Below are positions 16,637 through 31,826 of a stretch of DNA of 64,000 nucleotides, one piece after another. Position 1 is the first letter of the stretch. Each line of letters starts with the position of its first letter. The DNA is from Nannocystis bainbridge (GTDB lineage Bacteria; Myxococcota_A; Polyangia; Nannocystales; Nannocystaceae). The position numbers were made by a program, and so were the translations under genes. Location of the stretch: NCBI RefSeq assembly GCF_028368995.1, contig NZ_JAQNDL010000002.1, positions 801,724 through 865,723 of the forward strand. The letters run 5' to 3'. The notes below the pieces were generated by a model, which did not search any database, was not told where the DNA came from, and saw only the letters and a list, made by a program, of their open reading frames with translations.

Positions 16637-19600
16637 TCAGGTGGGCGCGCTGCCGTTGAACATGGCGCTCCACTGCGCGGGGCGGAGGATCGCCTGCGAC
16701 TCGAGGACCTGATCGGCCTGGGCGATCAGCGGCGCGCCGGTGGGGCCGAGCAGCTCCCCGCGGCGGCGGCGGGCGCAGGCGGCGTGCAGGCGCATGTCGG
16801 CGGTGTCGAAGCTGGCGGCGGCGGCCTCGAGGCGGACCAGCGCCTGCGGGATGTCGCCGTTCTGCGTGGCGATGCCGGCCCGGATCAGCGCGGCCATGGC
16901 GACCGAGTCGTGGCGCAGCGCGCGGTCCTCCTCGAGCTGGGCGGCGTCGCGTTCGGCGGCGGCGAGCAACACGCCGGCGTTGTGCGGCTGCTCGCGGGCG
17001 GCGGCGACGGCGGCGAGGCCCCGCGCGTGGAGGAAGAGGATCCGCTGGCCCTGCCAGCCGAGGATGTACGAGTTCTCGACGGCGACCCAGTTCTCGGCGA
17101 GGCGCTGCCACGCGGACCCGCCCTGGCCCTGGTAGAGGTCGCACGAGGTCTCGAGCAGCAGCGCGAGCATGTGCTGGAAGTGGAAGCCGTCCTTCGACCA
17201 GCGACGCATCGCCCCGCGCACGCGATCGCGGGCGCTGGTGATGTCGTCGGCGGCGAGCAGGGCATAGGCGCTGTAGAGGGCCGACCAGACCTCGCCGCAA
17301 AGATCGCCGGCGTCCTCGGCCTCGCGCAGCCAGGCGTGGGCGCGGTGGCCGAGCTCGGACAGCTCGCCGAGCATGAACAGCCCGCCCATCGAGCTCATGC
17401 GGGCGAGGTCGAGCTCCCAGCCGACGCCGACGCAGCGGTCGAGCAGGACCTGGGCGCCCTGCTCGTTGTGCTCGAGCGCGCGGCGCCAGCGGCCGAGCGA
17501 GACGTCGGCGATGGCGTCGATGATCTCGCACAGGGCCACGAGGCGCGCGTCCGTGAGCTGGTCGGCGAGCTTGCGCGCCTCCTTGAGGAGGGTGGTGCCG
17601 CGGCCGACGGCGTTGGCGGTGCCGCGGCTCATCACCATGGCGCCGACGCCGGCGAGGGCGCGGGCGATCCGGTGGGGCTCACCTGTCTGAAGGGCCAGGA
17701 GCAGGCCGCGCTGGAAGAAGCTGTAGCCGCGGATCGGGTCGACGAAGGCGAGGCCGACGGCCGCCGACAGGCACACGTCGAGGCGCAGCAGGTCGGCCGG
17801 CGGGACCTGCTCCTCGCGCACGCCGACGAAGCCGAGGCCGCGCAAGCTGAGCTGCGTCGAGCGGGTGATGATCGACATGTTGGCGCGGCCGGGCGTGGCC
17901 GGGTAACCGAGGTCGACCTCGACGAGCGCGGGCCGCAGCATCCGCACGCCCTGATCGATGTTGCCGCTGACGAGGAACTGCTCGCCGGCGCGGCGGCGCA
18001 GCTCGAGCGACTCGGCCGCGGTGGCGCCCTCGGCGGCGCTGGCGTAGACGGGGGCGGCCTCGGCGCTGCGACCGGCGAGCGCGAGCGCGTCGGCGCGGCG
18101 GCGCAGCAAGGCCCGGCGCTCGTCGTCGGCCAGGTCATCGGCCCACGCGAGCGCGCGGCCGTACAGCTGGGCGGCGCGCTGGAACGCGAGCGTGGCGGCG
18201 GCTCGCTCGGCGGCGGCGACGGCGGCGGTGTGGGCCTCCTTCAGGGCGCCGGCGGCGTGGAGGTGGTGCGCCAACAGCTCGGGATCGTCGGCGGCCTGGG
18301 CGAGCGCGTCGGCGAGGGTGCGGTGCAGCTGCGCCAGTCGATCGCCGCCGAGCTGCGCGAGCACGGTGTCACGGATCCGGTCGTGGTAGCACTCGATGGT
18401 GTCGCCGCTGCGGCTGGCGAGGGTGCGCAGCAGGTGCTGCGCCTGCAGCTCGCCGAGGACCGCGCGATCGGTGACGCCCGAGGCGGTGAAGGCGAGGCTC
18501 GGCGGGATCGGCCGCCCGGCGACGGCGACGATCTCGAGCAAGCTGCGACCGGCCGCGCGCAAGCCGGCGAGGCGCGTGCGCACGACGGCGTCGAGCGAGA
18601 CCTCGGCCGGCGCGGAGCCGCGATGACCGGCGATGTGGCGCGCGAGCTCCTCGACGAACAGCGGGTTGCCGCCCGACTCGGCGGCGATCCGGCGCGCCTC
18701 GGCGCGGGCGCTGTCGCTGTCGCGACCGAGCCGGGACAGCGCGAGCTCCTCGGCCTGATCGGGCGACAGCGGCTCGACCAGGAGGTCGCGCACCAGCGCC
18801 TTGAGCTCGGGCCGCGCGCCGAGCCGCCGCAGCTCGCGGAGCATCGGCGCGTCGTCCTCGTCGATGCGGTAGGAGCCGATGAACAGCATCGCCGGCGGAT
18901 CGGGGGGCGACAGCAGCTCGACGAGCAGGCGCGCGCTGTCCTCGTCGCCCCACTGCAGGTCGGCGATGCGCAGCACCAGCGGGCGGCGATCGGCGATCCG
19001 TGCCAGCAGCTCCTTGAGCCCGCGGAAGGCGCGACGACGAGCCTCCTGCGGGTCGGGGGCGACGAAGTTGCGCTGCGGCAGGTCGGCGACCACGGCCGCG
19101 CGCGCGAGCACGGGGAACAGCCGCGTGAGCTCGTGGATCTCGCGCGGCAACAGGGCCGCGGCCTCCTCGGGCGGGAGGTGGCGGAGGTGCTGCGCGAGCG
19201 CGTCGAGCACGCTGTCGAACGCCTTGTAGGGCACGCTCTCGCGCTCGTAGCAGCGGCCCTGCAGGACAAAGGCGCGGTCGGTGCGGCGCAGCTCGGCGAT
19301 GAAGCGATCGATGACGGCGGTCTTGCCGATGCCCGAGCGGCCGCGGACGTACACGCACACCGGCGAGCCGGCGACCGCGAGCTGGAAGGCGTCGCGCATG
19401 GCCGACAGCAGGTCGTCGCGGCCGACGAAGCGGGCGCCGGAGTCGGTCGGGCCGAGCGGGGCCTCGCCGAGCGCCTCGCGGATGTCGGCGCCGCCGAGCC
19501 GCGCGGCCGGGTCGCGCTGCAGGAGGCCCATGCACAGCGCGGCCAGCTCGAGGTCGACGTCGGGCGCGAGCTGCTGCGGCGGGGTCGGGTCCTCGTGCTG

Positions 19601-20323
19601 CTTGGCGTGCAGGATCTTCAGCGGCGGGCCGCTGAAGGGCAGGCGGCCGGTGAGCGCCTCGTAGAGCATGACGCCGATGGCGTACCAGTCGCTCGCGGAC
19701 GAAGCCGGGTTGCCGGCGGCTTGCTCGGGGGCCATCGTCGCCGGGGTGCCGAGCAGGCCGTCCTCGCCGCCCTCGCCGACGTCGTCGGCGGCGAGGCCGA
19801 AGTCGAGGATGGCGACGCGACCGTCGCCGCTGACCAGCACGTTCGACGACTTGAGGTCGCGGTGCAGCTTGCCGGCGGCGTGCAGGGCGCTGACGCCGGC
19901 GGCGAGCTGCAGCAGGGCCGGGCGCATGCGCTCGGGCGGCGGCGCTGCATCTGGCCTTTCGGACATGCCCTCACGGACATAGTCGACGAAGCTGACGCCG
20001 TCGACGAACTCCATGGTGATGAACCACTCGTCGTCGTGCGAGATCAGCTGATGGAGGCTGACGAGGTTCGGGTGCGACAGGCCGGCGGCGCTGCGGAACT
20101 CGTTCTTGAGGCGGAACAGCGCGCCGGGGTCGAGCTGGTGCAGGGTCTTGACCGCGACGGTGCGGCCGCTGTCGCGCTCGATCGCGGCGTAGACGATACC
20201 CATGCTGCCGGAGCCGACCCGTCGCACCAGCTCGTAGCGGCCGAGCGTACGCGGCAGGATGTCCTCAGGGACAGGTGGCGTCACCGGCAGCGAGGCGCGG
20301 GCCTGGGGCTCGTCGGACTTCAA
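16637..20323 (-). CDS. Ser/Thr protein kinase fused to an AAA/NB-ARC-like ATPase and a C-terminal TPR-like helical domain (STAND-type signalling protein)
   Basis: Kinase subdomains LGRYELVRRVGSGSMGIVYAA...AVK, HRDLKSSNVLV, DFGLA and GTPATMAPE. Walker A GRSGIGKT and Walker B LVLRIADLQWGDE. A long C-terminal helical-repeat region follows. No in-frame ATG lies near the kinase domain, so the start is probably TTG at about 20323. A repeat-family unit pair (19960-19984) encodes an insertion, GMSERPDAAPPPERM, inside the kinase domain. Confidence 0.85.
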   Translation of the reverse strand: MKSDEPQARASLPVTPPVPEDILPRTLGRYELVRRVGSGSMGIVYAAIERDSGRTVAVKTLHQLDPGALFRLKNEFRSAAGLSHPNLVSLHQLISHDDEWFITMEFVDGVSFVDYVREGMSERPDAAPPPERMRPALLQLAAGVSALHAAGKLHRDLKSSNVLVSGDGRVAILDFGLAADDVGEGGEDGLLGTPATMAPEQAAGNPASSASDWYAIGVMLYEALTGRLPFSGPPLKILHAKQHEDPTPPQQLAPDVDLELAALCMGLLQRDPAARLGGADIREALGEAPLGPTDSGARFVGRDDLLSAMRDAFQLAVAGSPVCVYVRGRSGIGKTAVIDRFIAELRRTDRAFVLQGRCYERESVPYKAFDSVLDALAQHLRHLPPEEAAALLPREIHELTRLFPVLARAAVVADLPQRNFVAPDPQEARRRAFRGLKELLARIADRRPLVLRIADLQWGDEDSARLLVELLSPPDPPAMLFIGSYRIDEDDAPMLRELRRLGARPELKALVRDLLVEPLSPDQAEELALSRLGRDSDSARAEARRIAAESGGNPLFVEELARHIAGHRGSAPAEVSLDAVVRTRLAGLRAAGRSLLEIVAVAGRPIPPSLAFTASGVTDRAVLGELQAQHLLRTLASRSGDTIECYHDRIRDTVLAQLGGDRLAQLHRTLADALAQAADDPELLAHHLHAAGALKEAHTAAVAAAERAAATLAFQRAAQLYGRALAWADDLADDERRALLRRRADALALAGRSAEAAPVYASAAEGATAAESLELRRRAGEQFLVSGNIDQGVRMLRPALVEVDLGYPATPGRANMSIITRSTQLSLRGLGFVGVREEQVPPADLLRLDVCLSAAVGLAFVDPIRGYSFFQRGLLLALQTGEPHRIARALAGVGAMVMSRGTANAVGRGTTLLKEARKLADQLTDARLVALCEIIDAIADVSLGRWRRALEHNEQGAQVLLDRCVGVGWELDLARMSSMGGLFMLGELSELGHRAHAWLREAEDAGDLCGEVWSALYSAYALLAADDITSARDRVRGAMRRWSKDGFHFQHMLALLLETSCDLYQGQGGSAWQRLAENWVAVENSYILGWQGQRILFLHARGLAAVAAAREQPHNAGVLLAAAERDAAQLEEDRALRHDSVAMAALIRAGIATQNGDIPQALVRLEAAAASFDTADMRLHAACARRRRGELLGPTGAPLIAQADQVLESQAILRPAQWSAMFNGSAPT

Positions 20324-20337
20324 GGGCAGAGTATGGA

Positions 20338-21492
20338 TTATGCCACGCGGGCGGGCCCGAGGTCGCCGTCCGTAGGCAAGGCCCCGGGCGGGACGCCGAG
20401 GCCGGGGCCGCAAAGCCGCGGTAGTTCGGGCGCGAGCCGCACCTGGCTCCCCGGCGGCATCGGATCGTCCCGCGTGAGCATGTGGGCGTCGAGGTCGGCC
20501 TCGTCGGCGAGGCGGGCCAGGGCGGCGCCAGCCGCGAGCCCGACGCGGGTCTCGATCATGCAGCCGACGAGCACCCGCAGGCCGGCCTCCCGGGCCGCGG
20601 CGATCGTCGCCAGCGCCGGCGAGATCCCGCCGCACTTCATCAACTTGACGTTGATCCCGGCGACCCGGCCGCGCAGGGCCGCCACGTCGCCCGGCCCCTG
20701 CACGTCCTCGTCGGCGTAGATCGGCAGGGGGATGTCGCGCGCGAGCGCCGCGAGGAGGTCAGGCCGACCCGCAGGCAGCGGCTGCTCGAGCTGCTCGACC
20801 CCGAGATCGACGAGCAGCGGGAGCAGGGCGCGCACGTCGTCCGCGGTCCAGCCGCCGTTGGCGTCGATCCGCAGGCGCGCCCGCGGGGCGGCGGCGGCGA
20901 CCGCTCGCAGCGCCGCACGGTCGAAATCGCGGCCCTTGCCGAGCTTGATCTTGAGCACCGGCAGGTGCGCGGCCGCGGCCGCGCGGGCGGCCATCGCGTC
21001 GAGCTCGTCGAGCGCGATCGTGTAAGAGGTGACGGTCGCGCCCGATGTGGCCGAAAGGACATGTCGTTCGAGACCTGCCCGATCGAGCACGTCGGGATCG
21101 GCCAGGAGGTCGGGCAGGGGGCGGTCCGCGGCGCGGGCGGCCGCGTCCCACAGGGCGGTGTCGACGGCGCAGCGGGCGGCGGAGTGGTCGGGGGCGAGCT
21201 CGCGCATGCGCGCGCCGGCGGCCGCGATCGCGCGCGGGTCGAGGAGGATCGCCGGCGCCAGCTCGGCCGCGATCGCGGCCGCCAGCGGCGCAGCGGCGGC
21301 CGCCGACTGACCGAGGTAGCGCACGGGCGAGGCCTCGCCGAGGCCGCGGCGATCGGGGCCTTCGGGCAAGCGGCATCCGGGACCCTCCGGGTCGAGGCGC
21401 ACGAGCAAGCTCGGTAGTTCGCTCACGGTGCCGCGCGACAGGCCGAACGGATGGCGCAGGCGGAGCGTGACGAGGGCGGCGCGCAGGTCCAT
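20338..21492 (-). CDS. Enolase-superfamily enzyme (mandelate racemase/muconate lactonizing family; dipeptide epimerase or o-succinylbenzoate synthase-like)
   Basis: KIKLGKG (catalytic Lys strand), RIDANGGW, EQP, YADEDV and KLMKCGG metal and base motifs appear in the expected order. Confidence 0.8.
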   Translation of the reverse strand: MDLRAALVTLRLRHPFGLSRGTVSELPSLLVRLDPEGPGCRLPEGPDRRGLGEASPVRYLGQSAAAAAPLAAAIAAELAPAILLDPRAIAAAGARMRELAPDHSAARCAVDTALWDAAARAADRPLPDLLADPDVLDRAGLERHVLSATSGATVTSYTIALDELDAMAARAAAAAHLPVLKIKLGKGRDFDRAALRAVAAAAPRARLRIDANGGWTADDVRALLPLLVDLGVEQLEQPLPAGRPDLLAALARDIPLPIYADEDVQGPGDVAALRGRVAGINVKLMKCGGISPALATIAAAREAGLRVLVGCMIETRVGLAAGAALARLADEADLDAHMLTRDDPMPPGSQVRLAPELPRLCGPGLGVPPGALPTDGDLGPARVA

Positions 21493-21542
21493 GCGGCTCC
21501 ACGGTGTACCACCGCCGACGCGGCATTGTATGGTGGCCCCGC

Positions 21543-23042
21543 ATGTCCGTTCGCCGCCCCGGAGGCTCGTCCAGCGCCGCGCTCGAGCGGCTGTTCGACC
21601 GCGACTCGCCGCTCTCCTATGAGGAGCGGCTCGAGGCCCTGATCAAGGCGGCGCTGCCGGACCGGATCCAGCGGCTGTCGTTCGGCGCCGAGCTGGCGCG
21701 CGGAGGCATGGGCGCGGTGCGGCTGGCGTTCGACGAGGTGCTGCAGCGGCGGATGGCCGCCAAGACCATGCACGCCAAGACCTACGAGCACCTGATCCTG
21801 GTGCACGGGTTCTTGCGCGAGGCCCAGGTGACCGGCCAGCTCGACCACCCCAACATCGTGCCGATCCACGAGCTCGGGCGCGACGAGCAGGGTCAGCTGT
21901 ACTTCACGATGAAGCTGGTCGAGGGCCAGAGCCTCAAGGCGCTGATCGGCGGCGAGGCGGCGACCGACCACGAGCGGCTGTTCCACCGCCTCGAGATCTT
22001 CGTCAAGGTGTGCGACGCGCTGTCGTTCGCGCACAGCCGCGGGGTGATCCACTGCGACATCAAGTCGGCCAACGTGATGGTCGGCGCCTACGGCCAGGTC
22101 TACCTGATGGACTGGGGCGGGGCGCAGCTGCTGCCGCTTCGGTCCGGTGACGACGAGGCCCAGTGGGTCCGCGACGCCCTGCCGCCGCTGCCGCCGTCGG
22201 AGACCGACGGGCTGGTGTTCGGCACGCCTTCGTACATGTCGCCCGAGCAGGCCAACAGCCAGCCGCTCGACGAGCGCGCCGACGTGTTCTCGATGGGGGC
22301 GCTGCTCTACGAGATGATGGCGGGCCGGCCGCCGTACACCGCGCGCACCGCCATGGACGCGCTGATCATGGCCCGCGAGGCCAAGTTCGCCCCGCCCGAC
22401 ACACACGTGTCGGTGCCGTTCCCGCGCGAGCTGGTGCGCATCGTGACCCGGGCGCTGCGCCGCGATCCCGACGACCGCTACCCGAGCGTGGCGGCGCTGC
22501 AGGCCGACATCGTCCGGCTGCTGCGCGGCAGCGGCAGCTTCCAGACGGTCCGCTTCGCCGCCGGCGAGCACGTGATCCGCGAGGGCGAGATCGGCGACGC
22601 GGCCTACATCGTCCTGGCCGGCAGGCTCGAGGTCTACAAGATCGAGGCCGGGCACCACGTGTCGCTGCGCTGGCTCGGGCCCGGCGACGTGTTCGGCGAG
22701 ACCTCGATCTTCGCGGCGTCACGCCGGACCGCCAGCGTGCTGGTGGTCGAGGAGGCGACGCTGACGAAGATCACCAGCGACCTGATCGAGGAGGAGCTGA
22801 CCTCGATGAAGCCGTGGATGGGCGCTTTCGTGCGCACCCTGGCGGCCCGCTTCGCCGGCGTCGAGGGCCGCACGCCGCGGGCCGAGGGCGCGCCGCGCTC
22901 GGCCCCGCCGCGCCCGGCCGTGACGGTCAGCGCGCCGACGACCTCGGGCGGCGAGAGCGTGATCATCGACATCGACGAGCCGCTCGACGACGCGCTCGAC
23001 GGCAGCGACATGCACGCGACCGTGGTGGCCCGCCGCCGCTGA
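21543..23042 (+). CDS. Ser/Thr protein kinase with a C-terminal cyclic-nucleotide-binding (cNMP) domain
   Basis: Kinase motifs GGMGAVRLAF...AAK, HCDIKSANVMV, DWGGA and GTPSYMSPE. C-terminal cNMP-binding hallmarks are GDVFGETSIF and RRTASV (FGE...RTA). The start may instead be GTG at 21504. Confidence 0.85.
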   Translation: MSVRRPGGSSSAALERLFDRDSPLSYEERLEALIKAALPDRIQRLSFGAELARGGMGAVRLAFDEVLQRRMAAKTMHAKTYEHLILVHGFLREAQVTGQLDHPNIVPIHELGRDEQGQLYFTMKLVEGQSLKALIGGEAATDHERLFHRLEIFVKVCDALSFAHSRGVIHCDIKSANVMVGAYGQVYLMDWGGAQLLPLRSGDDEAQWVRDALPPLPPSETDGLVFGTPSYMSPEQANSQPLDERADVFSMGALLYEMMAGRPPYTARTAMDALIMAREAKFAPPDTHVSVPFPRELVRIVTRALRRDPDDRYPSVAALQADIVRLLRGSGSFQTVRFAAGEHVIREGEIGDAAYIVLAGRLEVYKIEAGHHVSLRWLGPGDVFGETSIFAASRRTASVLVVEEATLTKITSDLIEEELTSMKPWMGAFVRTLAARFAGVEGRTPRAEGAPRSAPPRPAVTVSAPTTSGGESVIIDIDEPLDDALDGSDMHATVVARRR

Positions 23043-23057: not shown

Positions 23058-23140
23058 GAGGACATGTCCCTGGGGGCATGTCTGCAGCGACATGGTCGAT
23101 GTGTCATGTGCGTCACGACATGTCTGAACGGGCATGTCTT
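23058..23140. repeat. Tandem array of 6 GGACATGTCC-family units between convergent genes
   Basis: gaggacatgtccc, ggggcatgtctg, gcgacatggtc, gtgtcatgtgc, cacgacatgtctg and gggcatgtctt lie between the kinase-cNMP gene (+) and the cyclase gene (-). Confidence 0.85.
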
Positions 23141-23209: not shown

Positions 23210-24436
23210 TCACGCGCGCGCGGGCAGGGCGTCGAGCAGCTCGGTCAGCGCGCGCGGCAGGGCAGTGAAGCGGACCACCGCGCGGCCGGGGCTGGCGGCG
23301 ACGACCTTGGCGTAGGCGTCGACGCCGGGCAGGGCCGCGAGCACCAGCTTGAGGTCGGCGCGCAGCGGCAGCGGGGCGGACACCTGCAGCTCGGCGTTGT
23401 GGCGCTCGTCGTGGGCGACCAGCAGGGCCGGGACCTCCTGACCGCCGGTGTCCTTGCCCTCGAGCGCGGTGAACACCAGCGGCTGCGGCTGGGCCAGGAT
23501 CCGCCACTCGGCTGTCTCTTCGGCCATGTGGATGGCGAACGGGCCGTCGACGCCGGTGACGTCGTGGATCGTGATCGGCTCGCGCACGCCCTTGGGCCGG
23601 ACCTCGAAGCAGCCGCGGGTGCGCAGGCGATCGCCGAGGGCCCGCGCGGCGGACTCCGAGATCAGCACCTGACCGCCGACGGTGTAGCTCTCGATGCGCG
23701 ACGTCAGGTTGACGTGGCGGCCGACCACGCCGTACTTGGCGCGGCGGTTGGAGCCGATGTTGCCGACCACGACCTCGCCGGTGTGGACGCCGATGCCCAT
23801 CTCGAGCGCGGGCAGGCCGTGCGCGGCCAGGGCGGCGTTGACCTCGCCCATGGCCCGCTGCATGGCGATCGCGCAGGCGACCGCGCGCTCGGGGTGGTCG
23901 TCCTGCGGCACCGGGGCGCCGAACACCGCGAGGATGGCGTCGCCGATGAACTCGTTGATCGAGCCGCGGTACTCGCCGATCACGTCGGCCATGGCGCCGA
24001 GGTAGATGTTGAGGATCGCCACCACCTGCTCGGGGCCGAGGCCCTCGCACAGGGTCGAGAAGCCGCGCAGGTCGGAGATCAGGATCGTCAGCGTGCGCCG
24101 CTCGCCGCCGAGCTGGCGGCCCTCGGGCGAGGCGAGCAGCGTGTTGACGACCTCGTCGGTGACGTGGCGGCCGAACATCTGGCGGATGAAGGTGTTGCGC
24201 AGCTCGAGCTCGACCACCAGGGCCTCGACCTGCTCGATCTTGACGGCCAGCTGCTCCTCGATCTCGTTGGCGTGCTCGAGCGTCGAGTCGTGCAGCAGCA
24301 CCAGGTCGTCGTGCTCGGCCTGCAGCGCGGCCGCGGCGGCCACGAACGCGGCGCGGGCGGCCGGGTCGGCCAGGAGCTCGGCCGCGGCCTCGGGGTCGGC
24401 GAGGGCTCGCCGCCAGCGCGCATCGTCCGTGAGCAT
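23210..24436 (-). CDS. Class III nucleotidyl (adenylate/guanylate) cyclase with an N-terminal ~190 aa regulatory/helical domain
   Basis: Class III cyclase catalytic motifs: LTILISDLRGFSTL (metal-binding Asp), EFIGDAILAVFGAP, GIGVHTGEVVVGNIGS and GRHVNLTSRIES (NxxxR). It is the last gene of the SiaABC-like operon. Confidence 0.88.
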   Translation of the reverse strand: MLTDDARWRRALADPEAAAELLADPAARAAFVAAAAALQAEHDDLVLLHDSTLEHANEIEEQLAVKIEQVEALVVELELRNTFIRQMFGRHVTDEVVNTLLASPEGRQLGGERRTLTILISDLRGFSTLCEGLGPEQVVAILNIYLGAMADVIGEYRGSINEFIGDAILAVFGAPVPQDDHPERAVACAIAMQRAMGEVNAALAAHGLPALEMGIGVHTGEVVVGNIGSNRRAKYGVVGRHVNLTSRIESYTVGGQVLISESAARALGDRLRTRGCFEVRPKGVREPITIHDVTGVDGPFAIHMAEETAEWRILAQPQPLVFTALEGKDTGGQEVPALLVAHDERHNAELQVSAPLPLRADLKLVLAALPGVDAYAKVVAASPGRAVVRFTALPRALTELLDALPARA

Positions 24437-24449
24437 GCGGGCGGCCGGC

Positions 24450-24824
24450 TCAGTCGAGCGCGATCACGATCGCGGGCAGGAACTTCTTGAGGTTGGGCAG
24501 CGACTTGCCCTGCCACGGGATGGTCGACGAGCCGTGGACCTTGATCTCCGTCTCGCCCTTCTTGCGCGCGGCGATGGCGAACTTGTAGAGCATGTTGATG
24601 CCCGAGCTGTTGAGGAACTGCAGCTCGGTCATGCGCAGGGCGAGCGTCGGGCTGGCCTGGAGCACGCCGTCGAGCAGGTCCTCGATCGGCTTGTACTCGC
24701 TGGTGCTGAGGCGGAGCACGCCCTCGAAGTGGAGCGTGCGCGCGGGCAGGTCGAACCACACGCGGTAGCCGGGGCCTTTGATGTCGGTTTCCGACCCGGT
24801 GGGTCGCGTTGTCGTGTCCGTCAT
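24450..24824 (-). CDS. SiaC-like DUF1987-family partner-switch protein (putative phospho-acceptor)
   Basis: 124 aa, matching DUF1987 size. The central segment LALRMTELQFLNSSGINMLYKFAIAA resembles the SiaC core. The 4-nt overlap with the upstream kinase-like gene and a position between a HATPase protein and a cyclase match siaABCD synteny. Confidence 0.55.
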   Translation of the reverse strand: MTDTTTRPTGSETDIKGPGYRVWFDLPARTLHFEGVLRLSTSEYKPIEDLLDGVLQASPTLALRMTELQFLNSSGINMLYKFAIAARKKGETEIKVHGSSTIPWQGKSLPNLKKFLPAIVIALD

Positions 24825-25384
24825 GCCGATTTCACCTGTAGGCGGGCGGTGGTCTTGAGGAGCGCGTTGTCAGGATTGCCAGGCGCGGGGTCGAAGCGCC
24901 AGCCGAGCCGGGCCTTGTAGTCCGAGAGCATGGTGAGAAATCCCAGGCCCGAGGTCGTGAGCTCGGGGTTGGCGGCGTTCTCTTCGACGCGCTGCATCAG
25001 CAGGTCGGCGGGATCGCCGTCGAGCAGCTCGGCGAACTTGACCCGCAGGCCGTCGACCGTGGTGGTGGCGATCTGGTTGCTGACGACGACCACGAACTCG
25101 CCGGTCTCGACGCCGGCCTCGATGACGACGGTGCCGCCGGCGCAGAACTTGACCGCGTTCTCGATCAGCTCGTTGAGCACGTAGCCGACGCTGCCGATGA
25201 AGTCGCGCCGCTCGGCCTCCTCGGTCAGCTCGCTCTCGCTGACCTCGACGAAGTACTCGGCGAAGAAGTCGGCCGCGACGCTGCACTGGTTCCATCTGAC
25301 CGGGAACGCCCCCGGGTAGAACACGAGCGTGACGCGCGGTCCTGCGTCCGTGGGCTCCCTGTACTCGCCGATGATGCCGTCCAT
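24821..25384 (-). CDS. SiaB-like GHKL/HATPase_c_2 anti-sigma-factor-type Ser/Thr kinase
   Basis: N-box-like ELIENAVKF, G-box-like TSGLGFL and about 187 aa. It sits between PP2C-phosphatase and DUF1987 genes. Confidence 0.65.
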   Translation of the reverse strand: MDGIIGEYREPTDAGPRVTLVFYPGAFPVRWNQCSVAADFFAEYFVEVSESELTEEAERRDFIGSVGYVLNELIENAVKFCAGGTVVIEAGVETGEFVVVVSNQIATTTVDGLRVKFAELLDGDPADLLMQRVEENAANPELTTSGLGFLTMLSDYKARLGWRFDPAPGNPDNALLKTTARLQVKSA

Positions 25385-25407
25385 ACTCTCCGTCCGCCTC
25401 GTGCGCC

Positions 25408-27768
25408 TCAGCGCCGCTTGATCACCACCGTCGTGATGTCGTCGAAGACCTTCTGCGCGCCGATGAAGCGCATGACGTCGTCGACGATCGCCTGCTTGAT
25501 GTCCGTCGCCGGCCGCTCGTGGGCCCGGCGCACGACCTCGCACAGGCGGTCGATGCCGTACTGCTCGCCGTGGATGTCCTCCGCCTCGGTTATGCCGTCA
25601 GTGTACAGGACGACGACATCGCCCGGCGACAGGCGCACCTCGGTGCGGGCGATGAAGGCGGCGATGTCGACCTCGATGCCCACGGGCATGCCCAGGTCGA
25701 TCGTGTCGATGCGCTCGATCGAGCCGTCCTGGCGGACCACCACCGCCTCTTCGTGCTGCCCGGTGAGGCGGAGCACCCCCTGCGCGTAGTCGAGGAGGAC
25801 GAGCGTGGCGGTGCGGTCGAGGCCGACCCGCTGGATGTTCTGGTAGAGGACCTTGTTGACGATGTTGAGGAAGCGCGCCGCGTCGCGCTCCTCGGCGGCC
25901 TGCAGCGTGCGCACGGCCGTCTGGATCATCAGCATCAGCACGCCGCTCTCGAGCCCGTGGCCCGTGACGTCGCCGATGCCGATCTTGACGCCGTCGCCGG
26001 CGCGCAGGACGTCGTAGTAATCGCCGCCCACCTCGTCCGCGGGGCGCATGTAGCCGGCGACGTCGAGGCCCTCGATCTCGGCCAGCTCGCGCTCGGGCGG
26101 CAGGACCATGAGCTGCAGCCGGCGGGCGACGTCGAGCTCGGCGCCGAGCCGCAGGTTCTCCTGCGCGAGCCGCTCGTTGAGCGCCATGATCTCGCGGGAG
26201 GCCCGCTGCAGCTGGGCGGTGCGCTGCTCGACCAGGCGCTCGAGGTCGTGCGTATTCGCGCGGATCTCGGCGGCCATCTGGTTGAAGGCGCGGCCGAGGG
26301 CGCCGAACTCGTCGTCGCTGCGCACGTCGACGCGGACCTCGTAGTCCTTTTGCGCGATCTTGCCGGCGCCGGCGGCGAGGTCGACCAGCGCGCCGGTCAT
26401 GCGCCGCGAGACCAGGAAGATCCCCAACATCACCACCGCGAGGGCGAAGAGGGTGATGGCGATCTGGTTGAAGAGGATCCCGCGGCTGCTGGCGGCGATG
26501 GTGTCTCGCGCCTTGTGCAGCGAGGCGTAGATCTCGGCGGCGGGGACGACGAAGCCGAGAGTCCAGCGCTCGGGCACGATGTCGGCCGAGCCCGACCAGG
26601 CGTTGAACGGGGCCAGCCGCTTGAGCACGACCACGTAGTCCTGGCCGCCGATCGCGACCGGGTCGCGGTAGTCGACGGCGTCGCCGCTGGGCAGCGCGAG
26701 GGCCCGGATCGCCGGGTCGCGCGACTGGTGCAGGAACCGCTGGAAGATGTCGACGCCGCCGCCCGAGGCGCCGCGGACCTCCTGCAGGCCGAGGATGTTT
26801 TGGCCGTCGTCGCGCACGGCGAACACGTTGCCGTTGTCCTGGGCGAGGAAGGCGAAGCCCGAGCCGGCGAGCCGCAGATCCTGGACGTAGCGGATCAGCT
26901 GGCCGAGCGTGACGTCGACGCCGACGGCCCCGGCGAAGCGCGTGCGCGTGGCGTCCCACACCGGCTGGAACAGGGTCATGATCGCACCGCTGCCGCCGGC
27001 GTCGGTGTACGGCGCGGTGCCGGTCAGCTGCGTCGCGGGCTCGCGCATGCGCGCGGGATCGGCGAGCCAGCGCTTCCAGCCGTCGACGATGCCGGGGAAG
27101 TAGAAGCCCCAGAACGGGCTGTTGTTGTGGCCGGGGTAGAGCTGGTCGGCGTGGCCGGCGGCGTCGGCGTAGGGGGCGATCCGCAGGTACTCGGCGCCCT
27201 CGGGGCCGATGAAGTACATGGCCTGCTTCTCGGCCCCGTGCTGCAGCTGCGCGGGCAACAGCAGGTCGAGCAGGGCGGTCTGCGCGACGGCGGCGCGGAC
27301 CTCAGGCTTGATGTCCCGAAGGCCAGGTTGATTCGGAGCAGCAGGCGCGTGCAGGTAGCCCCACACGGCCACGGCCGTCGGCTCGCCCGCGGGGGTCTGC
27401 GACCACTCGCCGCGCGCATCGTAGACGAGGGCGTCGCGCAGCGGGCCGGCCGCGGCGGCCGCGGCGGTCAGCGGCGCGAGCGCGGCCTGTTGATCGATGA
27501 GCGTCTGGGTCACCGCCGCGAGCACGCCGAGCTCGGCGCCGGCGCGGCCGCGGAGAAATTCGACGCGCTGCGCGGTGTCCTCGAGGTGGTTGGTGAGGTA
27601 CTCGCGACTGGCGCGCTCGAGGCCCTTGCGGATCTCCTCCGAGGCGTCGCTGCCGAGCGAGCTGATGCCGCGCAGCGAGGCCAGCGCGGCGAGCGTCAGC
27701 CCGATGACCAGCCCGACCCCAGCGACGAGGACGAACTTGGTGCGGAACCTGGAGCCCGTGGTGGCCAT
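25408..27768 (-). CDS. SiaA-like membrane sensor phosphatase: periplasmic sensor domain, TM, HAMP and a PP2C/SpoIIE phosphatase domain
   Basis: N-terminal TM (FVLVAGVGLVIGLTLAAL), about 390 aa extracytoplasmic region, second TM (ITLFALAVVMLGIFLV), HAMP-like linker (FGALGRAFNQMAAEI). PP2C motifs are GGDYYDV, GDVTGHG and YTDGITEA. Confidence 0.8.
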   Translation of the reverse strand: MATTGSRFRTKFVLVAGVGLVIGLTLAALASLRGISSLGSDASEEIRKGLERASREYLTNHLEDTAQRVEFLRGRAGAELGVLAAVTQTLIDQQAALAPLTAAAAAAGPLRDALVYDARGEWSQTPAGEPTAVAVWGYLHAPAAPNQPGLRDIKPEVRAAVAQTALLDLLLPAQLQHGAEKQAMYFIGPEGAEYLRIAPYADAAGHADQLYPGHNNSPFWGFYFPGIVDGWKRWLADPARMREPATQLTGTAPYTDAGGSGAIMTLFQPVWDATRTRFAGAVGVDVTLGQLIRYVQDLRLAGSGFAFLAQDNGNVFAVRDDGQNILGLQEVRGASGGGVDIFQRFLHQSRDPAIRALALPSGDAVDYRDPVAIGGQDYVVVLKRLAPFNAWSGSADIVPERWTLGFVVPAAEIYASLHKARDTIAASSRGILFNQIAITLFALAVVMLGIFLVSRRMTGALVDLAAGAGKIAQKDYEVRVDVRSDDEFGALGRAFNQMAAEIRANTHDLERLVEQRTAQLQRASREIMALNERLAQENLRLGAELDVARRLQLMVLPPERELAEIEGLDVAGYMRPADEVGGDYYDVLRAGDGVKIGIGDVTGHGLESGVLMLMIQTAVRTLQAAEERDAARFLNIVNKVLYQNIQRVGLDRTATLVLLDYAQGVLRLTGQHEEAVVVRQDGSIERIDTIDLGMPVGIEVDIAAFIARTEVRLSPGDVVVLYTDGITEAEDIHGEQYGIDRLCEVVRRAHERPATDIKQAIVDDVMRFIGAQKVFDDITTVVIKRR

Positions 27769-27798
27769 GCGGTCGAGGACGAGGCGAGACGAGGCGCG

Positions 27799-28971
27799 TC
27801 AGCGTCCGGGTTTGCGGCCGGAGGCGACGTAGATCGGCCAGGTGGCGAAGCCGCGGCGGCTGCGGATCGCGTACACGTGATCGCGGAAGCCCATGCGCAG
27901 GCGCTCGACGACCTCGGGCGGCTGCTGCGTGGCGGTCGACAGCTCGCCGGTGACGTACTCCTCCCAGCTCTCGATCACCCGCGCGAAGTCGTCGATCGCG
28001 GTGTTGTTGTTGGTGATCGGGATCTGCTCCATGCGCACGTCCTCGAAGCCCATGTCGGTGAGCAGCGAGAACATCTTCGGCCCGAAGTTCATGTCCATGC
28101 CGAGGCTCTGGGCGATCTTCACGGCCTGCTGGTAGGTCCACGTGACCGACTCGTGGCGCGGGTAGCCGTAGTTGTGCGCCGACATCTCGTTGGTCAGGTA
28201 GACGCGACCGCCGGGCTTACAGATCCGCAGCAGCTCGCGCAGGATGCTCGACGGATCGTTGAAGATCTGCAGGGCCAGGCGCGAGGTGACGAAGTCGAAG
28301 CTGTTCGACGGCAAGAACAGGTGGGTCGCGTCGCCGAACTGGTACTCGATGTCGGTGATGCCGAAGTCGCGGGCGATCTGCTGCGCGTACTGCAAGAACG
28401 GGCGCGAGTGGTCGACGCCGACGATGTAGGTGGGCTCGAACTCCTTGTAGACGAGCACCGCGAAGTCGCCGATCCCGCAGCAGATGTCGGCGATCCGCAT
28501 GTGCTTGCCGAGGCCGTGCTGGCGCAGCAGCTCGCGCTCGTGCGACCACACGATGTTGGTCTGGGTCCGCAGCACCGGCACCAGCTGATCGTTCTCGATC
28601 ACGCCCTGGCCGGGATAAAACGCCTTGTCGTACTGCTCGACGATGGTGTTGCCGAAGCGCGCGCCGAGGAAGCCGAACCGCAGCGGCGCCCACGGGACCA
28701 CGCTCGAGATGACGAGCTTGAGCTTGAGCGCGGGGTGACGCTCGGCGCAGGCGGCGATGAAGCGCGCGAGCTCGAGGAAGCCGGCGTGGTTGAGGTAACG
28801 CAGGCGCTTGAAGTTGAGGTAGAGGACGCCTCGCACGGCGTCGGCGGCGTGGTCGAGGCGGGCCCGCACCGGCGCGAAGTCCTCGGCGCCGGCGGGGCGC
28901 AGAGAGCCCTCGAGCGCGACCTCCTGGTCGTTCTCGCTGAAGCGGATCGTGAACGGTCGCTCGTGCTCCAT
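27799..28971 (-). CDS. Fusion of a DUF1987/SiaC-like N-terminal domain with a class I SAM-dependent methyltransferase
   Basis: N-terminal ~100 aa (VLYLNFKRLRYLNHAGFLELARFIAAC) parallels the SiaC-like protein. Methyltransferase motif I is ADICCGIGDFAVL and the post-I/II region is CKPGGRVYLTNE. Confidence 0.65.
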   Translation of the reverse strand: MEHERPFTIRFSENDQEVALEGSLRPAGAEDFAPVRARLDHAADAVRGVLYLNFKRLRYLNHAGFLELARFIAACAERHPALKLKLVISSVVPWAPLRFGFLGARFGNTIVEQYDKAFYPGQGVIENDQLVPVLRTQTNIVWSHERELLRQHGLGKHMRIADICCGIGDFAVLVYKEFEPTYIVGVDHSRPFLQYAQQIARDFGITDIEYQFGDATHLFLPSNSFDFVTSRLALQIFNDPSSILRELLRICKPGGRVYLTNEMSAHNYGYPRHESVTWTYQQAVKIAQSLGMDMNFGPKMFSLLTDMGFEDVRMEQIPITNNNTAIDDFARVIESWEEYVTGELSTATQQPPEVVERLRMGFRDHVYAIRSRRGFATWPIYVASGRKPGR

Positions 28972-28983
28972 GGCCGGCTCGGC

Positions 28984-29490
28984 TCACTCGTGCGGGACGG
29001 TCAGGACGATGACGCCGGTGCCTTCACCCTCGCGCAGCGCGAGCCCGACGCCGTGCAGCGCGACCAGCTCGAGCAGCCCGACCTCGGCCGGCGGGCGCAG
29101 GATCATCGACTCGAACTCGGCCTCGTAGCGGGCGCGCGCGTCGGTCGGCTCGGCCAGCCCGAGGTCGACCCGCAGCCGCCGGGCCAGCGCCTCGTCGGTC
29201 GGCATCGTCAGCTCAGCGATCACGTGCTCGTCGGTGCGCCCGACCTCGACCACGATCTCGCCCTCGCTCGGGCGGGCGCGGAACACGTACTCGAGCACCT
29301 CGTTGAGATAGGTCGAGAGGCGCGTGGTCAGCTGCTCGGGGTCGAAGCGATCGGAGGCGACGAAGCGCGCGATGTAATCGGCCAGCCGCTGGCAATGCGT
29401 CCAGCTGTCATATAGCCCGCGGACGCTGATCCGCAGGGTGAGGATCGGGCTCGGGCCGGACGGTGAGGGGGGCGCGGGATCGGAGGTCAT
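28984..29490 (-). CDS. Second SiaB-like HATPase-type kinase paralog (about 168 aa)
   Basis: YLNEVLEYVFRARPSEGEIVVEVGRTDEHVIAELT parallels ELIENAVKFCAGGTVVIEAGVETGEFVVVVSN of the other kinase-like protein. It lies immediately upstream of the DUF1987-methyltransferase fusion. The start is taken at MTSDPAPP, upstream of which the ORF is composition-biased. Confidence 0.5.
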   Translation of the reverse strand: MTSDPAPPSPSGPSPILTLRISVRGLYDSWTHCQRLADYIARFVASDRFDPEQLTTRLSTYLNEVLEYVFRARPSEGEIVVEVGRTDEHVIAELTMPTDEALARRLRVDLGLAEPTDARARYEAEFESMILRPPAEVGLLELVALHGVGLALREGEGTGVIVLTVPHE

Positions 29491-29732
29491 GCCGGGGCGG
29501 AGGCGTGAGAGGGACCGCAGGCGCTCGCACCGGGCACGGATCGGCGCCTTGAGCCACGGTAACACGAAGCCGTCACGACCGGCCGCGAGCCGCGGACGCG
29601 GGCGAGGTTCGGGTCCGCGCACCGACGTGCGCCGGCGCAGACGGCCCGCGCGGGCGCGAAAAAAGCTCGCGGGCCGCGGGAACAAGCCCCAGGAGCCCGT
29701 GTCCGAGCCGCCACACGACCGGGGCAAGGACG

Positions 29733-31826
29733 ATGACTACGACCAGGACGCTCGCCATCAAGGTGTTTTACGGCGATCAGCTCGTCGACACGCAGACGCT
29801 GACGCAAGACGTTATCAAAATTGGAAAACTGAAGAGTAGCCACCTCTGTCTCGATGACGAGGCTGTGGCCCGCATGCACGCCGTGATCGAGGTGTCCGGC
29901 GAAGAGGTGCGGGTGATCGATCTCGGGAGCGCGGCGGGCACCGTGCTCAACGGCCAGCGGATCGACAAGAACGCGGTGCTGCACGATGGCGACGCCTTGA
30001 ACTTCGGGCCCTACCGGCTCGAGGTCGGCTTCGTCCGGCAGCAGGCCGCGGTCGCGCCGGCCCCGTCGCAGGTGGCCGCGCCCGTGGCTGTGGCGGTCGC
30101 CGCGGCGCCGATGGCCGCGCCGATGGCGACGCGGGCGCCGATCCAGATCGACCTCAGCGAGGTCGAGAATCAGGGCGGCTCGCGCGTGGCCGAGGTCGTG
30201 GCGATGTACGGCACGACGGTGCTCGACGTGCAGCACGTCGGTCAGCTGCGCAACCGCAAGTCGCAGGCGCCGATCTTCCTCGCCATCGGCGGGGCGATGC
30301 TGGTCGCTGGCGCGGCGGTGTTCTTCAGCGACGTGAACGCGGACTGGCCCGGCTACGGCAAGAAGGTCCAGGATTCGATCGAGCAGGGCACGCCGCGCCC
30401 GACCCCGCCCGGAAACGGTCTGGCGGCGATCGGCATGCTGCTGGCGATCGCGGGCCTCGTGCCGTTCAGCATGGGCCTCATCCGCACCGGCGACTACGTC
30501 AACAAGAACTTCACGATCGGCGAGGGTCACGGCGCGTCGTTCCACGTGCCGCCGGCCGGCCTGCCCGAGCCCAACGGCTTCCCGCTGGTCCGCGGCAGCG
30601 ACCACGAGTTCGCGCTCAACTTCACCCAGAACATGAGCGGTGAGGTCACCTTCGACGGCCAGACGATCACGCTGCAGCAGCTGGTCGCCACCGGTCGCGC
30701 GGGCGCGCAGGGCTCGTCGTTCAGCTTCCCGCTGCCGCCCGGAGCGACGGCGCGGGTCAAGTACCAGGACGTCACCTTTTACGTGAACTCGGTCGCGCCG
30801 GGCGCGGTGATCAAGGGCGGCAGCGAGACCGACAAGCCGTTCTGGATCTACAACGGCGCCTCGTTCGTGGTCATCGGCAGCCTGCTGGTGCTCACGCACC
30901 TGATCCCCAACGAGGCCGGCAACCTCAGCCTCGACGAGATGATGGAAGAGAACCGCTTCGTCGGTTACCTCAACCAGCCCGACAAGCCGCCGGAGGAGGA
31001 GGAGCCGCCGCCGGAGGACATGGAGAACTCCGACGACGAGGCCGGCGGCACCGGTCAGCGTCACAAGGGCGAGGAGGGCAAGATGGGCAAGCCCACCTCG
31101 AAGAGCAAGTCGGGCCTCTACGCCATGAAGGGCCCCAAGGACGCCATCCCGCAGATGGCCCGTAACTTCGACCCCGACATGGCCGCGCGCCAGGCCGGCA
31201 TCCTCGGGGTCATGAGCGCCGAGAGCGGCCACTTCCTCGCCTCGCCGTACGGCGGCGCGTTCGCGGTCGGCAACGACGACGCGGACGTGTGGGGCGGCCT
31301 CACCGGCACCGAGGTCGGCGAAGCGTACGGCGTCGGCGGCCTCGGCCTGGTCGGCACCGGCCGCGGCGGCGGCGGCACCGGCGAGGGCACGATCGGCCTC
31401 GGCAACACGGGCCTCATCGGCAAGGGCGGCGGCGGCGGCACGGGCTCCGGCTACGGTCGTGGCGCAGGCGCCGGCTTCGGCGGCCGCGGCACCCGCGTGC
31501 CGACGGTCCGTCAGGCCAAGGCCGAGGTCCAGGGCGCGCTCGACAAGGACATCATTCGCCGCATCGTCCGCGCGCACATCAACGAGGTCCGCTACTGCTA
31601 CAACCAGGCCCTCGCGCGTGACCCCAACGCCAAGGGCCGCGTCGCCGTCCAGTTCACCATCGGCGGCACCGGCAAGGTGCCCACGGCGGTGGTCCAGGAG
31701 AGCACGTTGAAGGACCCGGCCGTCGGCTCCTGCATCGCCCAGGCGGTCAAGCGCTGGACCTTCCCCAAGCCCGAAGGCGGCGGTTCGGTCATCGTCTCGT
31801 ACCCGTTCGTGCTCGAGCCGGGTTGA
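29733..31826 (+). CDS. FHA-domain protein with a Gly-rich low-complexity region and a C-terminal AgmX/PglI-type (TonB-C-like) domain
   Basis: N-terminal FHA (IKIGKLKSSHLCLDDEAVARMHAVIEVSGEEVRVIDLGSAAGTVLNGQRI). One predicted TM. GGGGTG repeats. C-terminal VRYCYNQALARDPNAKGRVAVQFTIGGTGKV...SVIVSYPFVL is typical of the myxobacterial AgmX/PglI C-terminal domain. Confidence 0.8.
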   Translation: MTTTRTLAIKVFYGDQLVDTQTLTQDVIKIGKLKSSHLCLDDEAVARMHAVIEVSGEEVRVIDLGSAAGTVLNGQRIDKNAVLHDGDALNFGPYRLEVGFVRQQAAVAPAPSQVAAPVAVAVAAAPMAAPMATRAPIQIDLSEVENQGGSRVAEVVAMYGTTVLDVQHVGQLRNRKSQAPIFLAIGGAMLVAGAAVFFSDVNADWPGYGKKVQDSIEQGTPRPTPPGNGLAAIGMLLAIAGLVPFSMGLIRTGDYVNKNFTIGEGHGASFHVPPAGLPEPNGFPLVRGSDHEFALNFTQNMSGEVTFDGQTITLQQLVATGRAGAQGSSFSFPLPPGATARVKYQDVTFYVNSVAPGAVIKGGSETDKPFWIYNGASFVVIGSLLVLTHLIPNEAGNLSLDEMMEENRFVGYLNQPDKPPEEEEPPPEDMENSDDEAGGTGQRHKGEEGKMGKPTSKSKSGLYAMKGPKDAIPQMARNFDPDMAARQAGILGVMSAESGHFLASPYGGAFAVGNDDADVWGGLTGTEVGEAYGVGGLGLVGTGRGGGGTGEGTIGLGNTGLIGKGGGGGTGSGYGRGAGAGFGGRGTRVPTVRQAKAEVQGALDKDIIRRIVRAHINEVRYCYNQALARDPNAKGRVAVQFTIGGTGKVPTAVVQESTLKDPAVGSCIAQAVKRWTFPKPEGGGSVIVSYPFVLEPG

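Follow-up and report, generated by a model that had tools for sequence, protein, structure and literature searches.

We analysed a window of 64,000 nucleotides from Nannocystis bainbridge (contig NZ_JAQNDL010000002.1, positions 801,724 to 865,723), in which six minus-strand open reading frames (ORFs) at 23210-29490 appear to place a class III nucleotidyl cyclase under the control of a partner switch. The ORFs are co-oriented and closely packed, and in transcription order they encode a 168-amino-acid (aa) degenerate GHKL-like protein, here called p168 (28984-29490); a 390-aa fusion of a STAS-like domain with a class I S-adenosylmethionine (SAM) methyltransferase (27799-28971); a 786-aa membrane sensor phosphatase (25408-27768); a 187-aa GHKL protein (24821-25384); a 124-aa STAS-like protein (24450-24824); and a 408-aa soluble class III cyclase of the Cya2 type (23210-24436). 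An earlier sequence-only reading had described six consecutive minus-strand genes here and likened them to the SiaABCD system, and all six ORFs were recovered where it had placed them. From the comparisons given below, we consider it probable that the locus encodes a partner switch of the type represented by Bgr in Sinorhizobium meliloti, with a stand-alone Cya2-type class III cyclase as its output, and that its likeness to Sia is one of fold and logic.

The six genes form one apparent operon. With ATG starts, the successive intergenic distances are 12, 30, 23, -4 (an ATGA overlap between the stop of the 187-aa gene and the start of the 124-aa gene), and 13 nt; the spacing of 4-23 bp given previously is slightly off. 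These starts were picked to fit the lengths of homologues (e.g., 187-188 aa for homologues of the GHKL protein), and the start of p168 was checked against a 172-aa Sinorhizobium protein, to residues 8-168 of which its own residues 8-168 align. A scan for minus-strand terminator-like sites found none within the cluster, and the identical set and order of six genes is present in four other Nannocystis species (loci L009-L012), with protein identities of 79-98%, in keeping with the earlier suggestion of one operon. The presumed promoter region is the 242-bp divergent intergenic region 5' of the first gene (29491-29732); no sigma-70-like consensus was found in it, and at the G+C content of about 70% seen across the window such promoter and terminator scans tell little.

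The last gene of the operon encodes what the sequence-only reading had placed in the output position, a class III cyclase instead of a GGDEF protein, and this assignment is confirmed. The protein, which is identical to a protein of N. bainbridge (P0119), matches Pfam Guanylate_cyc (PF00211) at residues 115-283 (E 5e-26), its residues 108-307 are about 65% identical to the catalytic domain of Cya2 (PDB 2W01; E 1.6e-70), and it aligns with a phytochrome-Cya2 chimera (6FHT) over residues 55-308. The metal-binding D122 and D166 are intact and N243 and R247 are present, all four being invariant in 122 aligned sequences; judged by these residues, the cyclase is catalytically intact, with all catalytic residues present. 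The Nannocystis locus contains no GGDEF gene. With Cya2 the enzyme shares the closely similar catalytic domain with its metal Asp, Asn, and Arg residues, a Glu-Gly specificity pair, a cyclase transducer element (CTE), and a C-terminal extension. It differs in being soluble, with a short motif-bearing helix at its N-terminus, whereas Cya2 is located in the membrane and carries a CHASE2 sensor (PMC5995499).

The Glu-Gly pair bears on the nucleotide produced. Cya2 carries an E-G substrate-specifying pair (PMC4215837), and the single change E488K turns it into an adenylate cyclase (PMC5995499). The corresponding residues of the Nannocystis enzyme, E162 and G236, align with this pair and are retained in 84 homologues that share the domain architecture, which makes cyclic GMP (cGMP) a more likely product than cyclic AMP (cAMP). 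The cAMP/cGMP-type signal suggested previously is consistent with an intact class III enzyme, and the pair narrows it toward cGMP. The product is nevertheless not certain, because the Tyr residue that boosts guanylate cyclase activity in Cya2 is replaced by Ser246 (Ser in 82 of the 84 homologues) and because Cya2 itself has been reported to bind ATP and GTP equally well (PMC4215837). These points count for an adenylate or dual-specificity cyclase with cAMP rather than cGMP as the signal, as does the linkage of other copies of this gene cassette to cyclases with a Lys-Thr or Lys-Asp pair. We regard this alternative as rather unlikely, given the Glu residue, whose change to Lys is the one that makes Cya2 an adenylate cyclase, and the overall identity to the Cya2 catalytic domain.

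The neighbouring gene on the opposite strand also bears on the choice of nucleotide. It is convergent with the cyclase gene (21504-23042, plus strand) and encodes a Ser/Thr protein kinase of about 512 aa with a C-terminal cyclic-nucleotide (cNMP)-binding domain, both domains scoring above the Pfam cut-offs (Pkinase, residues 62-333, E 5e-37; cNMP_binding, residues 349-430, E 2e-17); the kinase motifs HCD, DWG, and SPE and the Lys are visible in its sequence. Such kinases adjoin homologues of the cyclase in L001/L002, L009-L012, L089/L090, L096, L091, and L097, that is, on at least eight distinct contigs, and in L091 and L097 there is no partner switch nearby. The phosphate-binding cassette FGE...R-T/S-A (RTA in the window) is conserved in all of them. 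R-T/S-A is the residue pattern of the cGMP-binding sites of cGMP-dependent protein kinase (PKG) and to that extent argues for cGMP; it is not diagnostic in bacteria, and E. coli CRP binds cAMP though its cassette reads Arg-Ser, a point for the cAMP alternative. Whichever nucleotide is made, the genomic pairing marks the kinase as the obvious candidate for its receptor.

The cyclase has no sensor domain of its own. The Guanylate_cyc domain begins at residue 115, and the N-terminal domain of about 190 aa that had been attributed to the protein does not exist; instead, the N-terminus is some 105 aa long and helical, consisting of a helix of about 85 aa followed by the CTE, and its only features are the CTE and a sequence motif shared with other enzymes, which is discussed below. 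The CTE motif reads FGRH (residues 88-91; 24164-24175, minus strand), compared with the conserved -FGRY- (PMC5995499), and joins the N-terminal helix to the catalytic core. At the other end lies a C-terminal extension of about 110 aa (residues 301-408; 23213-23536, minus strand) without a Pfam match at E<=10, which is kept in the cyclases of L001 (39%) and L030 (36%) and visible in protein P0369. Cya2 also has an uncharacterised C-terminal extension, which is required for its activity (PMC5995499).

Upstream of the cyclase gene lie the two genes that would form the core of the switch. By their NCBIfam profiles, the 187-aa and 124-aa proteins are members of the slr1658 and slr1659 superfamilies (NF047703 and NF047705), with scores of 151 and 123 bits, respectively, against cut-offs of 100. 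They had been described as a SiaB-like kinase and a SiaC-like DUF1987 protein, and this holds for their folds and not for their sequence families. No Pfam DUF1987 (PF09345) match was obtained even at E<=10 for the 124-aa protein or for the N-terminus of the methyltransferase fusion, the 187-aa protein scores 25.1 bits against SiaB_fam_kinase (NF038262; cut-off 85), and the Pfam matches to STAS (E 0.012, 124-aa protein) and HATPase_c (E 0.009) are marginal. A search of PDB sequences with the 124-aa protein did not find SiaC. The AlphaFold2 (AF2) models built from homologue alignments have pLDDT (predicted local distance difference test) values of 91.7 for the 124-aa protein and 92.0 for the 187-aa protein, and in Foldseek searches of the PDB the former matched SiaC best (7e6g_F, 6kko_D, 6k4f; E 1e-5, template-modelling (TM) score 0.62-0.68), followed by the classical STAS antagonists SpoIIAA, RsbV, and RsbS, which bears out the SiaC-like fold previously proposed. 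The latter matched SiaB best (6kko_A; E 2.5e-5, TM score 0.61/0.66), followed by UsfX, SpoIIAB, and RsbW. The relation of both small proteins to SiaB and SiaC is visible only through structure prediction and Foldseek. Membership in the Sia family was considered and rejected on the lack of DUF1987, the SiaB score of 25 against 85, and a SiaA score of 113 against 700 for the phosphatase; the resemblance in fold was kept.

The 124-aa protein carries the predicted phospho-acceptor site of the switch. The sequence N-S-S-G is invariant in 74 of its homologues; here it lies within FLNSSGIN, and its Ser73 and Ser74 are located at the start of helix 2 in the AF2 model. In SpoIIAA the phospho-serine is likewise at the start of helix 2. 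In SiaC, Thr68 lies just ahead of helix 2 (PMC7647112).

The 187-aa protein is a predicted Ser kinase and sequestering partner of the 124-aa protein. In its family the N-box NELxENAxKF and a G2-like SGLG are invariant. Kinase activity is plausible from these motifs; it is not assured, given that an invariant Asn (Asn103) occupies the expected position of the G1-box Asp and that a profile of the family, searched against PDB sequences, does not find SiaB. The two genes are adjacent, with the 4-nt overlap noted above, and in Sorangium and Chondromyces their counterparts are fused into one 305-aa protein (proteins P0302-P0310; L016, 9437-10354, plus strand). The existence of these fused versions supports a direct pairing of the two proteins.

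The probable input of the switch is the 786-aa phosphatase, which consists of a transmembrane segment, a periplasmic dCache-like domain, a second transmembrane segment, a HAMP domain (residues 452-504), a coiled coil, and a PP2C/SpoIIE domain (residues 592-785). Pfam matches are to SpoIIE (E 3.5e-39, over the full length of the model), HAMP (1.2e-12), and, below the cut-off, dCache_1 (5e-07), and the metal-site motifs GDVTGHG, YTDGITE, and DDITTVV are present. The proposal of a SiaA-like sensor phosphatase was right in the periplasmic domain, the HAMP domain, and the SpoIIE/PP2C domain; with 113 bits against a cut-off of 700 for the SiaA equivalog NF038263, and a match confined to the HAMP-PP2C part (residues 432-781), the protein does not belong to the SiaA family proper.

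The first two genes of the operon constitute a conserved accessory branch of the cassette. p168 matches slr1658_superfam weakly (E 1e-6, 28 bits). Across its family (n=54), N63, E64, and E67 are conserved, the Mg-binding Asn position of the N-box (position 68) is occupied by T, A, V, L, or Y, and GLLEL stands in place of the G2-like SGLG, so that the G2 glycines are gone. Since the Mg-binding Asn is missing across all 54 members, p168 is unlikely to be a kinase, contrary to the previous description of a second SiaB-like HATPase kinase, and is probably a pseudokinase or binding partner. The 390-aa protein is a SAM methyltransferase fusion, as had been noted (residues ~129-270; Pfam Methyltransf_11/25/31 and Ubie_methyltran; SAM motif DICCGIGD); its N-terminal domain (residues ~1-120) is not DUF1987 and instead resembles slr1659 weakly (slr1659_superfam, E 9e-11, 42 bits). 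At the position of the phospho-site motif it reads YLNHAGF, and 51 homologues follow LN[NH][TVIA][AG]F, without Ser-Ser and in some cases with Thr at the phospho-site position, which suggests that this STAS-like domain is mostly non-phosphorylatable at the canonical site.

We looked for the same arrangement in a scan with one genome per species, in which 572 loci encode a relative of the 124-aa protein; the window proteins were mapped onto the best 80 of these. A five-gene core, consisting of p168, the STAS-methyltransferase fusion, the dCache/HAMP/PP2C phosphatase, and the slr1658-like and slr1659-like proteins, recurs in Nannocystis, Sorangium, Polyangium, Mesorhizobium, and other Rhizobiaceae, as well as in Chthoniobacteraceae, Anaerolineales, Desulfobacteraceae, and Rhodanobacteraceae. 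A class III cyclase adjoins the cassette in several arrangements. It lies downstream in Nannocystis (L001, L009-L013); upstream on the same strand in metagenome-assembled genomes (MAGs) of Polyangia (L030), Anaerolineales (L038), and Rhizobiaceae (L041, in which the cyclase lacks the N-terminal motif); upstream and divergent in an unclassified bacterial MAG (L029), a Chthoniobacteraceae MAG (L039), and an alphaproteobacterial MAG (L051); and convergent in an Acetobacteraceae MAG (L053). Other forms are a reduced slr1658-slr1659-cyclase cluster (L089, L096), cyclase-PP2C-ThiF-x-slr1658-slr1659 (L093), and GAF-PP2C-slr1658-slr1659-PAS-cyclase in a Microcoleus MAG (L081). The check on gene order that had been called for thus shows the six-gene order in the four other Nannocystis species and a cyclase linkage that recurs across phyla.

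The enzymes that flank the cassette are of several kinds. Some of the linked cyclases are Cya2-like, with Glu or Asp together with Gly, and others have Lys-Thr or Lys-Asp, as is typical of adenylate-cyclase-like enzymes judged by these residues. In Mesorhizobium, Aminobacter, S. meliloti, and a Magnetovibrionaceae MAG the neighbour is a GGDEF or GGDEF-EAL protein; in Sorangium, Polyangium, and many alphaproteobacteria it is a small PP2C protein; and in cyanobacteria it is a histidine kinase. The phosphatase varies as well: in L089/L090/L096 (~12204-15063, plus strand), just past the cNMP-kinase gene, it is an SBP_bac_5-SpoIIE fusion of about 937 aa, which suggests that the input sensor of the switch is interchangeable too. 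A second, divergent operon was observed in a Nannocystis sp. MAG (L001/L002, 522-5090, minus strand), transcribed away from the first. It encodes a GRAS-like protein of 366 aa, a 177-aa protein, a 309-aa SpoIIE/PP2C protein, a 170-aa protein weakly similar to slr1658, RsbW, and HATPase_c_2, a 135-aa protein weakly similar to slr1659, and a 352-aa class III cyclase, in which the hidden Markov model (HMM) of the N-terminal motif described below found no match.

The closest studied system, judged by sequence, is Bgr and not Sia. A protein search of plasmids found the five-gene core on pSymB of S. meliloti (CP140937.1, our L094), in a cluster that encodes an EAL/GGDEF protein of 564 aa, a 172-aa protein, a methyltransferase of 392 aa, a SpoIIE protein of 786 aa, an ATP-binding protein of 187 aa, and a hypothetical protein of 112 aa. 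By blastp, p168, the fusion, the phosphatase, the GHKL protein, and the STAS-like protein of the window are collinear with this cluster at 28, 47, 45, 37, and 47% identity, the fusion and the phosphatase matching their counterparts over the full length and p168 over residues 8-168. The 172-aa counterpart of p168 (L094, 4396-4914) is labelled 'ubiquinone biosynthesis methyltransferase UbiE' in GenBank, which looks like a carry-over from the neighbouring methyltransferase gene. On the 3' side of the cluster are five other genes and then the gene for UDP-glucuronate decarboxylase (Uxs), which is SMb20458; counting back gives SMb20447-20452 for the cluster. Baena et al. (2019, Environ Microbiol) reportedly described a hexacistronic bgrRSTUWV operon in S. 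meliloti, and our identification of the cluster with this operon rests on the counting of locus tags from Uxs together with the tag of bgrR, which we take to be SMb20447.

On this identification, p168, the fusion, the phosphatase, the 187-aa protein, and the 124-aa protein correspond to BgrS, BgrT, BgrU, BgrW, and BgrV, respectively. The two systems share the order of the five genes, a protein of about 115 aa with FLNSSGIN, and a messenger-forming cyclase within the operon. They differ in that the Nannocystis enzyme is of class III and encoded at the 3' end of the operon, whereas BgrR is a GGDEF-EAL protein encoded at the 5' end, and in that the Nannocystis cyclase has a 33-aa N-terminal motif, missing in BgrR, and a linked cNMP kinase. 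In the Bgr system, the diguanylate cyclase BgrR is under the control of BgrV, whose phosphorylation state depends on the phosphatase BgrU and the kinase BgrW (PMC7647112), and bgrV is described as encoding a repressor of BgrR (PMC13438883). Because of this repression, it is not safe to assume that the STAS-like protein activates the Nannocystis cyclase, as the sequence-only reading had done by analogy with SiaC.

Compared with SiaABCD, the locus shares the HAMP-PP2C phosphatase, the GHKL kinase, the small STAS-related phosphoprotein, and a stand-alone cyclase with an N-terminal helix. It differs in the Ser-Ser of NSSG in the 124-aa protein in place of Thr68 of SiaC, in the extra pair of pseudokinase and STAS-methyltransferase fusion, and in the class III output, SiaD being a GGDEF protein. 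The classical anti-sigma switches RsbU/RsbV/RsbW and SpoIIE/SpoIIAA/SpoIIAB have the same PP2C, GHKL Ser kinase, and STAS folds and a Ser at the start of helix 2; unlike them, the Nannocystis locus has an enzyme as its apparent output and no sigma factor, and its similarity to them is marginal (STAS E 0.012).

A possible point of contact between switch and cyclase emerged from the alignment of the enzymes that flank the cassette, whose N-termini have a 33-residue segment in common with the pattern [DE]L..LLHE..LEH...IE..L. In the window cyclase this segment is EHDDLVLLHDSTLEHANEIEEQLAVKIEQVEAL (residues 41-73; 24218-24316, minus strand), within the N-terminal helix. Eleven instances of the segment were made into an HMM, which was run over every stop-to-stop ORF of 80 aa or more in the loci and in the window (1.86 M residues). 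In 41 of the 80 genome loci it matched exactly one ORF, always a cassette-flanking enzyme, with E values of 2e-6 to 4e-15. Of these ORFs, 12 encode cyclases, with both subclasses represented, and 29 encode PP2C proteins of ~310-345 aa. The next-best matches (E 0.018-0.027) are two cyanobacterial histidine kinases, which also flank the cassette. By this search the motif is specific to cassette neighbours, with one ORF matched per locus and a next-best E of 0.018. A profile built from the cyclases only gave 14 matches among 1.84 billion representative proteins, the profile being short; among them are GGDEF proteins in which the motif occurs twice in tandem and a Cya2-like cyclase that also has it twice. 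Relatives of the cyclase with receiver or HAMP domains lack the motif. In Sorangium, the gene for the 305-aa slr1658-slr1659 fusion is followed by those for a motif-bearing 343-aa PP2C protein, a 159-aa ORF product, and a PAS-GAF-STAS protein.

By analogy with Sia, the motif is the best candidate for the docking site of the switch. In that system the N-terminal stalk helix of SiaD contains two motifs to which SiaC binds, turning SiaD into its active dimer (PMC8457831). A sequence-level link between the 33-aa motif and the SiaC-binding motifs of SiaD was considered and is unsupported, the motif profile having failed to detect SiaD in the PDB. The earlier suggestion of a SiaC-docking module at the cyclase N-terminus therefore survives as a conserved helix motif of 33 residues and not as a domain of 190 aa.

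Which protein of the switch would contact the helix is a separate matter, and the 187-aa GHKL protein or p168, rather than the STAS-like protein, might do so. The commonest bearer of the motif is the small PP2C with an N-terminal extension (29 of the 41 loci), a layout that recalls the arrangement of RsbT to RsbU_N (PMC9237108), and two GHKL-like proteins are conserved in the cassette. In addition, an RsbT-like kinase of Moorella, MtT, is stated to bind and attenuate a diguanylate cyclase (PMC7647112). We nevertheless judge contact through a GHKL protein unlikely, as the STAS-like protein is the effector in both of the closest studied systems, with SiaC binding the SiaD stalk (PMC8457831) and BgrV repressing BgrR (PMC13438883).

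Several observations weigh against the cyclase as the target of the switch or against the motif as the means of reaching it. Close cassettes without any enzyme neighbour exist (L004, L014, L032), as do cyclase homologues without a cassette nearby (L091, L097, L098), and no partner accompanies the cassette more constantly than the methyltransferase fusion. The cyclase might then be only a neighbour or a co-transcribed passenger under separate regulation, and the switch might instead act on the methyltransferase of the fusion or on an unlinked target, either a sigma factor or an enzyme. Neither alignment nor HMM found the motif in S. meliloti BgrR or in the Mesorhizobium GGDEF-EAL neighbours, which indicates that the motif is not the sole route from cassette to target, and the failure of its profile to detect SiaD also belongs here. 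We consider a passenger role quite improbable, however, given that two cyclase subclasses adjoin the cassette in at least five gene orders in several phyla, that the cyclase has no sensor domain and shares its N-terminal motif with PP2C and GGDEF proteins found in the same flanking position elsewhere, and that no sigma-factor gene was found among the annotated domains of the Nannocystis locus. Furthermore, in the S. meliloti counterpart of the operon, genetics has defined the neighbouring enzyme as the target (PMC7647112, PMC13438883).

If the cyclase is indeed the output of a Bgr-type switch, the locus might work as follows. A signal in the periplasm would be sensed by the membrane PP2C phosphatase by way of its dCache-like and HAMP domains. 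The phosphatase would dephosphorylate the 124-aa protein at Ser73 or Ser74, and the 187-aa GHKL protein would re-phosphorylate and sequester it. The free 124-aa protein would bind the helix motif of the cyclase (residues 41-73), just upstream of the CTE; alternatively, the GHKL partner, once released from the 124-aa protein, may bind there. Binding could alter the productive dimer state of the cyclase, with activation and repression both conceivable as the sign of the regulation, and the product, most likely cGMP, would be read by the convergent cNMP-binding Ser/Thr kinase.

A broader and more tentative proposal, which we hold with less confidence than doubt, is that the motif is a portable 33-residue helical plug through which the five-protein switch runs interchangeable outputs, and that Nannocystis contains a complete cGMP pathway with a PKG analogue. 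The outputs would be guanylate- and adenylate-type class III cyclases, diguanylate cyclases, PP2C phosphatases, and perhaps histidine kinases, and the pathway would consist of a periplasmic sensor, the partner switch, the Cya2-type cyclase, and a cGMP-dependent Ser/Thr kinase.

The first partner switches to be recognised act on sigma factors. That others control cyclic di-GMP (c-di-GMP) synthesis is a more recent finding and is established, with SiaABCD, HsbA-HsbD, and BgrRSTUWV as examples (PMC8457831, PMC7647112). The literature that we searched, mostly outside subscription journals, contains no description of a partner switch controlling a class III cyclase, in keeping with the earlier reading, whose author was aware of none; nor did it yield a paper dedicated to DUF6272 or to the slr1658 and slr1659 superfamilies, or one on cGMP signalling in myxobacteria. 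To our knowledge, bacterial cGMP signalling is documented in few organisms, namely Synechocystis (Cya2), Rhodospirillum centenum, and Xanthomonas. If the present reading is correct, a third class of messenger would be added to the outputs of partner switches, and the control of sensor-less, stand-alone class III cyclases would be explained. A Cya2-type enzyme with a defined input and a linked cNMP kinase would make a full cGMP pathway testable in culturable myxobacteria, and the shared N-terminal motif offers a concrete, mutable handle on the contact between switch and target.

Two further systems may be related. Synechocystis Slr1658 and Slr1659 are the name-giving members of the superfamilies matched by the 187-aa and 124-aa proteins; the window protein differs from them in scoring 120 bits against the cyanobacterial equivalog cut-off of 200, and the cyanobacterial loci examined lack the pair of pseudokinase and methyltransferase fusion. 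In L048, L063, and L081 a histidine kinase or PAS-cyclase lies downstream, and in L064 and L069 no signalling enzyme adjoins the pair. A slr1658 mutant has a phenotype in recovery from iron starvation (Zer et al. 2018, Plant J, cited in PMC7555055), and the papers examined that mention slr1658 or slr1659 contain nothing on their mechanism. In R. centenum, cGMP synthesis needs gcyB and gcyC (RC1_3783-3788 region), hypothetical genes whose products are described as non-catalytic subunits of the guanylate cyclase (PMC4681086); they might be a related regulatory pair.

Several other features of the window were observed. Two long ORFs overlap on opposite strands, one of 1843 aa (15188-20719, plus strand), without a Pfam match at E<=0.001, and one of 1332 aa (16637-20635, minus strand). 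Divergent from the operon is a gene for a 697-aa FHA-domain protein (29733-31826, plus strand), which is 96% identical in the four other Nannocystis species, above most of the operon proteins, and is missing from the corresponding place in the Nannocystis sp. MAG (L001). Since phospho-threonine is the ligand of FHA domains, a link of this protein to the neighbouring Ser/Thr kinase is possible. Finally, the palindromic octamer GACATGTC (GnCATGTC) occurs in arrays with an exact spacing of 14 bp at 5175-5196, 8949-8970, 14029-14078, 15199-15262, 23061-23138, and 36621-36642; the window has 55 matches where 8.2 are expected, and none of 100 shuffles reaches 55. The arrays were found by pattern search, Tandem Repeats Finder having reported no 14-bp array. 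One of them, with about six units (23061-23138), occupies the convergent gap between the cyclase and cNMP-kinase genes, and the octamer represents either a dispersed repeat or arrayed binding sites.

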